Virus record (IMG/VR): IMGVR_UViG_2841260384_000002
Origin: an uncultured virus (IMG/VR IMGVR_UViG_2841260384_000002)
Taxonomy: Duplodnaviria; Heunggongvirae; Uroviricota; Caudoviricetes
Strand: one strand, 5' to 3'
Length of the DNA: 64,000 bases
How positions within the stretch are numbered: the first letter of the stretch is position 1; every line of letters starts with the position of its first letter. Shown here piece by piece: positions 5,732 to 5,960 of this stretch. The notes beneath the pieces were generated by a model. It did not search any database. It saw only the letters and a program-made list of their open reading frames with translations, and had not been told where the DNA came from. The translations under genes and the position numbers were made by a program.

Positions 5732-5960
5732 TTTCCTCTTTAAGTAGCCCGTCTTTCCGAGCTGTCAGGTCTTGCCTTGTAGCTTTGGTCGGTAACTAAT
5801 TAAATTCCCTGGTACTGCAAAAATTCACTGTTATGTCGTGGTAATCATGAAAGGTCGCGATGAGAGCTTTGGTTTTCCTCCGACATAACAGCAAAACTAA
5901 ATTTGGTTTGAACACCTATCAAAACACTTGCTGTGATGCTTTGTTTGTTTCGATGTTTGT

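Follow-up and report, generated by a model that had tools for sequence, protein, structure and literature searches.

Positions 5768-5792 of the window (the whole stretch of viral DNA that was analysed, 64,000 nucleotides in length) read, on the minus strand, as two neighbouring boxes in the leader of the leftward early transcript (PL) that are complementary to a small RNA (sRNA) encoded on the plus strand of the same Providencia prophage. We propose, with confidence that stops a little short of even, that the two boxes serve the prophage's own IsrB-family RNA as a functional docking site on the nascent PL leader. The sequences, their complementarity, the RNA structure, the conservation and the co-variation are observed. 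The RNA family and its ribosome-site regulon are the more robust result; the leader site plausibly belongs to this system, being conserved yet plastic. The leader region comprises the following features.

5961-5990, minus strand: PL promoter (-35 TTTACA, 18-nt spacer, -10 TATATT; start near 5954), from promoter prediction and the operator
5819-5895, minus strand: large leader hairpin (arms 5828-5838/5881-5891 plus extensions) and U run 5823-5819, with a covarying apical helix
5768-5792, minus strand: two-box PL leader site, from complementarity, cofold helices and conservation
5780-5792, minus strand: box 2, complement of the hairpin-2 loop; conserved core on the RNA GACCAAAGC
5768-5777, minus strand: box 1, complement of the sRNA seed/linker; box sequence GGCAAGACC
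5747-5762, minus strand: small leader hairpin with a 5-bp stem and a GAAAGA loop, from covariation; 5 nt downstream of the site
5220-5746, unstranded: prophage-specific insertion of about 530 nt holding orf79 and orf70, from comparison with relatives
5314-5553, plus strand: orf79 (PHROG 20080), in the insertion
5519-5731, minus strand: orf70 (no family), in the insertion

A preliminary description of this DNA had assigned the transcript to PL, and the assignment was confirmed: the promoter lies at 5990-5961 (-), and a CI operator half-site, TACAAGAA, overlaps its -10 and recurs three times between cI and cro, so that such half-sites are common to PL and OR. Given this promoter position, the leader site falls at about +163 to +187 on the PL transcript. 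The plus strand at 5768-5792 reads GGTCTTGCCT-TG-TAGCTTTGGTCGG, which bears out the earlier reading of the PL RNA as two boxes with a CA spacer. The 13-mer at 5780-5792 is an exact direct repeat of 5166-5178, in agreement with the claim that it complements the loop of sRNA hairpin 2, and the 10-mer at 5768-5777 recurs exactly at 5120-5129 in the sRNA 5' seed, as had also been stated, and again at 4736-4745. As both repeats are direct, a plus-strand RNA carrying 5120-5129 and 5166-5178 finds its complement in the leftward transcript, and the order and polarity of the boxes match antiparallel pairing with this RNA. By our own estimate, two exact boxes, 2 nt apart and in the correct order, are far beyond chance, and the true alternative to a target is common descent, not chance. 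Taken alone, the 13-mer at up to 2 mismatches has 3 matches compared to 0.97 expected, a number reached by 10 of 100 shuffles and not significant; for a 15-mer around the seed, allowing up to 3 mismatches, 8 matches were counted where 1.93 were expected, and none of 100 shuffles reaches 8. The sRNA locus itself is composed as follows.

5067-5095, plus strand: sRNA promoter (-35 TTGTGC at 5067-5072, 17-nt spacer, -10 TAAAAT at 5090-5095), from sequence reading
5102-5217, plus strand: IsrB-like sRNA of about 116 nt, from a permissive Rfam scan, fold and covariation
5102-5110/5115-5123, plus strand: sRNA hairpin H0, from the fold
5116-5132, plus strand: sRNA seed, exact complement of a dispersed ribosome-binding 17-mer
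5124-5128, plus strand: single-stranded UUGCC linker, from the fold
5133-5138/5147-5152, plus strand: sRNA hairpin H1 with loop 5139-5146, from the fold
5159-5164/5183-5188, plus strand: sRNA hairpin H2 with an 18-nt loop at 5165-5182, from the fold
5195-5212, plus strand: sRNA intrinsic terminator, with a run of seven U to 5217, from sequence

The sRNA promoter overlaps the start of orf110 on the opposite strand, and Xenorhabdus, Photorhabdus and Serratia loci have TATATT or TATAAT at the position of its -10. An alternative promoter at 5089-5118 was rejected, as other genera do not conserve its -10. The predicted first bases of the sRNA, 5102-5105, form a GATC (Dam site) that is kept in most lineages and pairs with the seed GGUC in H0. 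According to the fold, H0 sequesters UCAUUGGUC and leaves UUGCC single-stranded. The 13-mer sits wholly inside the H2 loop, and the 10-mer covers the 3' arm of H0 and the single-stranded linker. On the minus strand, the seed is the ribosome-binding site (RBS) and ATG of a 4-codon mini-ORF.

We then examined the structure in 37 distinct 5'-extended homologues from the listed loci. The four-hairpin structure pairs 96.9% of cells in this set, compared to 88.4% in column shuffles (none of 500 as high) and 31-51% with slid partners. Twelve pairs have changed on both sides, and in H1 this holds for 7 of 8 pairs. While the stems drift, the seed TTGGTCTT.CCTC is invariant in the 37 homologues, and so are the loops, TTGGTC in H1 and GCTTTGGTCGG in H2, both of which contain UUGG. 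A purely cis-acting antisense RNA would not need an invariant seed and invariant loops, and we counted this pattern in favour of docking. By comparative criteria, namely the covarying structure, the positionally conserved -10 and a sub-threshold IsrB match with the same synteny, the partner RNA on which the preliminary description relied is real.

Full-length copies of the sRNA (93-100% identity) were found in 10 of 61 related genomes, along with one partial copy. A pattern scan of a genome collection gave mostly chance matches; keeping those loci that also have a T run left at least 22, from genera including Providencia, Proteus, Xenorhabdus, Photorhabdus, Serratia and Enterobacter. IMG/VR contributed at least 113 loci, comprising at least 45 distinct RNAs. 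A distant blastn search of 4600-6200 against 50,697 phage records returned no match. The complement of an 11-mer from the H2 loop occurred at control frequency in five genomes and gave no host target lead. RNA libraries were consulted as assembled Logan contigs from four runs of four studies, which do not establish transcription and give neither strand nor ends nor level. A 115-nt contig of run X1 covers exactly 5102-5216 at a depth of 85, with flanks at 5050-5131 at depths of 30 and 53. We rejected the ends of this contig as RNA ends: they coincide with strain-variant branch points and the depths add up, and the boundaries are therefore attributed to collapsed strain diversity.

The two-site pairing put forward in the preliminary description was supported by interaction prediction. 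Cofolding of the sRNA with 5740-5830 (-) gave -18.5 kcal/mol, compared to -5.8 +/- 2.9 for 200 dinucleotide shuffles, one of which was as low. The predicted helices join 5120-5128 to 5768-5776 and 5166-5178 to 5780-5792; a 13-bp helix within an 18-nt loop is strained, and the conserved core amounts to 9 nt only. When 4262 windows of 90 nt on both strands were scanned for trans sites, with the sRNA's own antisense set aside, the leader site ranked fourth (-19.5), behind the RBS of orf55 (-25.7), orf112 (-22.1) and orf104 (-20.0). Of 79 distinct sRNA-leader pairs from the listed loci, 47 outperform every one of 15 shuffles (counts that are not independent, the sequences being related), and the median is -13.5 kcal/mol versus -5.8 kcal/mol in shuffles. 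A z value below -2 was obtained for 54 of these listed pairs; about 10 show nothing, and the site is weak or missing in about 25-32. In a cross-lineage energy matrix, cognate pairs were clearly favoured for Serratia alone: elsewhere, most leaders are bound about equally well by cognate and non-cognate sRNAs.

From 5' to 3', the PL leader consists of a conserved start, the large hairpin with its U run, the site and the small hairpin, and in the consensus leader fold the site stretch is unpaired between the two hairpins. The large hairpin is also present in Xenorhabdus and Photorhabdus leaders and absent from a class of short (105-nt) leaders; it looks like a terminator and may act as one or as a read-through element. 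A short motif of the leader RNA, ACCAGGGAA, lies between this hairpin and the site, at 5808-5816 and at the homologous leader positions in L176, L173 and L277; it is kept across genera, and no partner was found for it. The preliminary description had also pointed to further TTTGGT echoes. These are present at 5868-5873 and 5902-5907, but they are not conserved among nine aligned leaders: the former falls inside the covarying helix, and the latter is deleted in five of the nine.

The insertion, in which orf79 and orf70 are convergent with overlapping 3' ends, parts the sRNA terminator from the small leader hairpin, which in most relatives begins 16 nt past the terminator. The insertion-less joint 5219->5750 was seen in RNA-library contigs of runs X1 and X6, and other relatives bear different insertions at the same joint.

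The small hairpin is fully paired on minus-strand RNA only (U.G there, C.A on the plus strand), shows 11 stem variants around an invariant loop, is present in 102 of 119 listed loci and is unique in the 64-kb window on both strands. Its covarying 5-bp stem and invariant purine-rich loop, well formed on the leader RNA only, would also suit a protein-recognition (nut-like) region, that is, a linear antitermination part read by an unnamed factor, for which the likeness to the sRNA would be secondary; the terminator-like leader hairpin similarly suggests that read-through needs help. We consider this explanation very improbable. A six-frame scan of 1-18000 found no arginine-rich N-like peptide and no PL-proximal N candidate, in agreement with the earlier remark that no Arg-rich N gene is apparent; the two basic stretches that it did find are a 30-residue frame at 8141-8194, which overlaps cI and corresponds to no listed ORF, and a stretch inside the theta-subunit-like ORF at 12377-12607. 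Furthermore, the window, PR operon included, holds no second such hairpin, and on both grounds the small hairpin was rejected as a nut site. No boxA-like motif was seen by eye, and the short leaders that lack the large hairpin retain the two-box site.

In the Serratia-type provirus (L157/L403), the small hairpin has a loop and 3' arm (GGAAAGAC) that complement the Serratia-type seed perfectly and fall one mismatch short of complementing the Providencia-type seed. The small-hairpin loop may therefore be a third sRNA contact.

We next assessed how far the docking site is conserved. The comparison was based on 119 listed loci of the 5'-extended type, 102 of which have the small hairpin (several of the other 17 are short loci), and exact matches were counted within 70 nt beyond this hairpin. 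A match of at least 9 nt to the sRNA 5' part was present in 57 of the 102 listed loci (42 of 76 distinct) and one to the H2 loop in 64 (45 of 76 distinct). Both matches reached at least 9 nt in 31 (20 of 76 distinct) and at least 8 nt in 58 (40 of 76 distinct). The two-box site is kept at the same place in most of these 102 listed loci, in five genera; it is plastic and sometimes lost. The preliminary description had named a degenerate duplicate not conserved in relatives as the finding that would speak against a target: the two-box arrangement is conserved in most relatives, but the exact 10+13 form of the window is limited to 14 of the 102 listed loci (6 of 76 distinct). Of the 61 related genomes, 10 contain the hairpin block; all 10 have the sRNA, and the block always lies beside it.

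The pattern of change is relevant to the possibility that the boxes are functionless leftovers of recombination or duplication of the RBS linker and the sRNA 5' half, a decaying repeat. Box 1 is a degenerate member of the 17-mer RBS family and lacks two Shine-Dalgarno bases and the ATG, the sRNA 5' half recurs as a further partial copy before orf55, the region is rich in tandem duplications and indels (e.g., L282, L286 and L313), and the listed pairs with a weak or missing site fit decay as well. Lambdoid phages carry short conserved boundary sequences at module joints, which we also counted for such an origin. A 1-nt deletion in box 1 occurs in more than 20 loci, the L272 type and L009 lack box 2, the site lies elsewhere in the leader in Photorhabdus, and no site was found in the leaders of L271, L319 and L259. 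However, in 40 listed Providencia-/Proteus-type leader variants the cores of both boxes, GCTTTGGTC and GGTC..CCT, are kept at 90% or more amid spacers and flanks rich in indels, and the stretch stays unpaired between two conserved hairpins. In addition, box 2 tracks the loop or hairpin-1 variant of the cognate sRNA in two genera. In Serratia, the leader combines the lineage's own 17-nt seed variant with a following TTGCTTTG that fits the loop-2 variant of this lineage; in Xenorhabdus, one or two TTGCCTCTT units per leader are accompanied by TGGTCTCCGT or GATTGGTCTC, which fit hairpin 1 of that lineage. The L389, L158 and L272 types have a seed match that extends into the respective H1 arm. With sRNA boxes that hardly vary, true compensatory changes are few, and gene conversion between repeats could give the appearance of co-variation. 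On balance, we judge a decaying repeat to be rather unlikely.

Box 1 belongs to a dispersed ribosome-binding motif of 12-17 nt at early genes of both operons. The complement of the sRNA seed, AAGAGGCAAGACCAATG, is the exact RBS and ATG of orf55, the exonuclease gene, the mini-ORF, orf74 and orf112, and the copies are located as follows.

1971-1987, minus strand: exact 17-mer, RBS and ATG of orf55
4731-4747, minus strand: exact 17-mer, RBS and ATG of the 668-aa exonuclease gene
5116-5132, minus strand: exact 17-mer, RBS and ATG of the 4-codon mini-ORF beneath the sRNA gene
9139-9155, plus strand: exact 17-mer, RBS and ATG of orf74, the first gene after cII in the PR operon
13430-13446, plus strand: exact 17-mer, RBS and ATG of orf112 (PHROG 536, regulator-like)
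15330-15346, plus strand: 17-mer with one mismatch, RBS and ATG of orf104 (RecA-dependent nuclease family), just before Q

Positions 1388 and 12188 bear weaker copies. Copies sit on the coding strand in both divergent early operons, and none with fewer than four mismatches was found beyond the first 16 kb of the window, where a four-mismatch match at 47789 was the single hit. Among the 61 related genomes, precisely the 11 that carry the sRNA also carry the 17-mer, with 37 occurrences in all; every copy is on the sRNA contig and within about 16 kb, and control hits were 0. The core GAGGNAAGACCA is present in 3-8 copies each, in both orientations, in five diverse proviruses. All 6 core copies of the Serratia-type provirus have A where the other 20 copies have C, matching its own seed variant, and 4 of the 6 lie outside the sRNA locus at ORF starts, including two in the other operon. 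Such change in concert is compatible with selection for pairing, although homogenisation among recombination linkers could also yield it.

Several observations concern other genes of this region. Upstream of orf55, positions 1997-2007 (-) reproduce the 3' arm of sRNA H1 at 10 of 11 nt. The start of the Gam-like gene (2732-2759, minus-strand RNA) carries AGAAGAGGCAA with GACCAA 12 nt upstream, a two-box layout resembling the leader units. The 668-aa "exonuclease" (2727-4733, -) matches PHROG 2489 over its full length (E 5e-258) and no Pfam family at E <=0.01. Directly downstream of cI, the position of rexAB in lambda, a 385-aa protein (6397-7554, -) with an HSDR_N domain (type I restriction R N-terminal domain; PHROG 4225, endonuclease) may be a lysogen-expressed defence gene.

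The ribosome-site targets raise the question of whether the leader site acts upon the sRNA and not the reverse. As a decoy (sponge), it would soak up the sRNA when PL fires and free early-gene RBSs in both operons, so that PL would license translation. The site has no RBS or ORF of its own in most relatives and lies at the 5' end of what is presumably the most abundant early transcript, and the sRNA has at least 5 better or equal targets at ribosome sites. Against this, every read-through PL transcript carries the 116-nt complement and would titrate the sRNA without a special site, regardless of the 530-nt insertion. We hold a decoy to be unlikely.

In the docking reading that we prefer, we infer pairing in the cell, the direction of its effect and its molecular consequence. 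The sRNA would be made from its own plus-strand promoter, convergent with PL, and would expose its invariant parts: a linker/seed, UUGCCUC, with UUGGUC at its flank, and the loops of H1 and H2, both of which contain UUGGUC. The H2 loop, with its U-turn-type UUGG, would kiss box 2 (GACCAAAGC) while the linker/seed pairs with box 1 (GGCAAGACC). Docking would tether the sRNA before the polymerase reaches the fully complementary 116 nt, which begin 55 nt past the site in most relatives and about 585 nt past it in the window. The resulting duplex would lower expression of the leftward operon by covering the mini-ORF RBS beside the orf110 start, by duplex cleavage or by polarity. Attenuation of the whole leftward operon, as suggested in the preliminary description, is plausible from the sequence. 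No sRNA-dependent terminator was identified downstream of the site, and the sole terminator-like hairpin is upstream of it. The effect might also have the opposite sign, since there is precedent for pairing within a long untranslated leader to impede Rho loading and so increase read-through, and the site might be redundant, since the PL transcript carries a perfect sRNA complement further downstream. The same seed would cover the identical 17-mer on at least 5 other early genes in both operons, and the RNA would thus set a threshold for early-gene expression.

A broader picture, which we advance as doubtful, is that N-less lambdoid prophages of Morganellaceae and Serratia would possess a second, RNA-based layer of immunity. 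An IsrB-family RNA would read a 12-17-nt RBS "address" in both operons, and a two-box entry/decoy site on PL, by the dedicated hairpin, would decide between silencing and consumption of the sRNA. A resident prophage could then silence heteroimmune superinfecting relatives, given that the RNA, the leader block and the address are conserved beside variable CI immunity regions. IsrB has been catalogued since 2008. With a conserved seed, co-changing identical RBS targets and a leader docking site, this locus offers a concrete candidate mechanism for it. If true, N-less temperate phages would gate both early operons with one antisense RNA, a single phage regulator would combine cis-antisense and trans-acting modes, and the frozen loops and seed of an RNA family whose stems drift would be explained.

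How does this RNA compare with known systems? No Rfam family matched anywhere in the window at gathering score. A permissive scan of 4600-6200 at E up to 10 gave an isrB (RF01386) match at 5091-5216 (+) of 30.3 bits (E 0.0041), below the gathering score of 35 bits. The likeness comprises the loop GCUUUGGUCGG and the terminator, which are common to canonical isrB and the window sRNA with high posterior probability and are also shared by canonical-type IsrB loci found by pattern. It extends to synteny, the sRNA lying antisense between the recE/sbcA-type exonuclease (PHROG 2489, 2727-4733, -) and PL; Salmonella isrB-1 and isrB-2 (Gifsy-2/Gifsy-1; 88/94 nt) lie beside sbcA in the orientation "<- -> <-" (PMC2330248). 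In contrast, the Rfam alignment contains a 46-nt insertion, and the 5' half of the window sRNA (H0, seed and H1) is not homologous; likewise, the canonical-type locus L163 has no leader repeat of at least 9 nt, unlike the window leader. The window RNA is thus IsrB-like by loop, terminator and synteny, under the Rfam cut-off and with a new 5' domain. One published discussion calls Salmonella IsrB ProQ-associated with a "likely" role in lysogeny maintenance (PMC5391140). The literature searched held no published function or mechanism for IsrB, and our motif strings occurred there in unrelated primers only. Other candidates for the same RNA were rejected: svsR (PMC12803456) and the Pas sRNAs (preprint) are different RNAs. 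The E. coli "IsrB" is AzuCR and unrelated.

The preliminary description had likened the pairing to P4 CI/seqC and C4. The P1/P7 C4 and P4 CI RNAs pair with two boxes on an early transcript, thereby holding lytic functions down, and the likeness stands in this regard: here too, a short structured phage RNA faces two separate complementary boxes on the early transcript (5768-5777 and 5780-5792). It does not extend to origin. C4 and P4 CI RNAs are cut out of the same transcript that they target, whereas the window RNA is read from the opposite strand, between a promoter and a terminator of its own, as it must be, since its boxes are direct repeats of the RNA gene. A C4-type match was also absent among the 9 Rfam matches at E up to 10 in 4600-6200. 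The window sRNA is not a member of the P4 CI or P1 C4 family, and the comparison serves as a working analogy only.

Being encoded opposite its target, with several hairpins and UUGG loops, the sRNA also resembles cis-antisense RNAs such as CopA, Sok, FinP, P22 Sar and lambda OOP; the U-turn YUNR loop motif speeds RNA-RNA recognition. It behaves as a trans-acting RNA as well, given its partial-match sites away from the locus, at the leader site and at RBSs in the other operon. The small leader hairpin recalls lambda nutL boxB in being a short hairpin with a purine-rich loop on the early PL transcript, its stem covarying in the window's family of leaders. Finally, the chb spacer acts as a decoy for ChiX, and AgvB for GcvB; the leader site resembles them as a non-coding stretch of mRNA or leader that complements an sRNA seed, with the difference that here the decoy and the sRNA would belong to one phage, on opposite strands of one locus.
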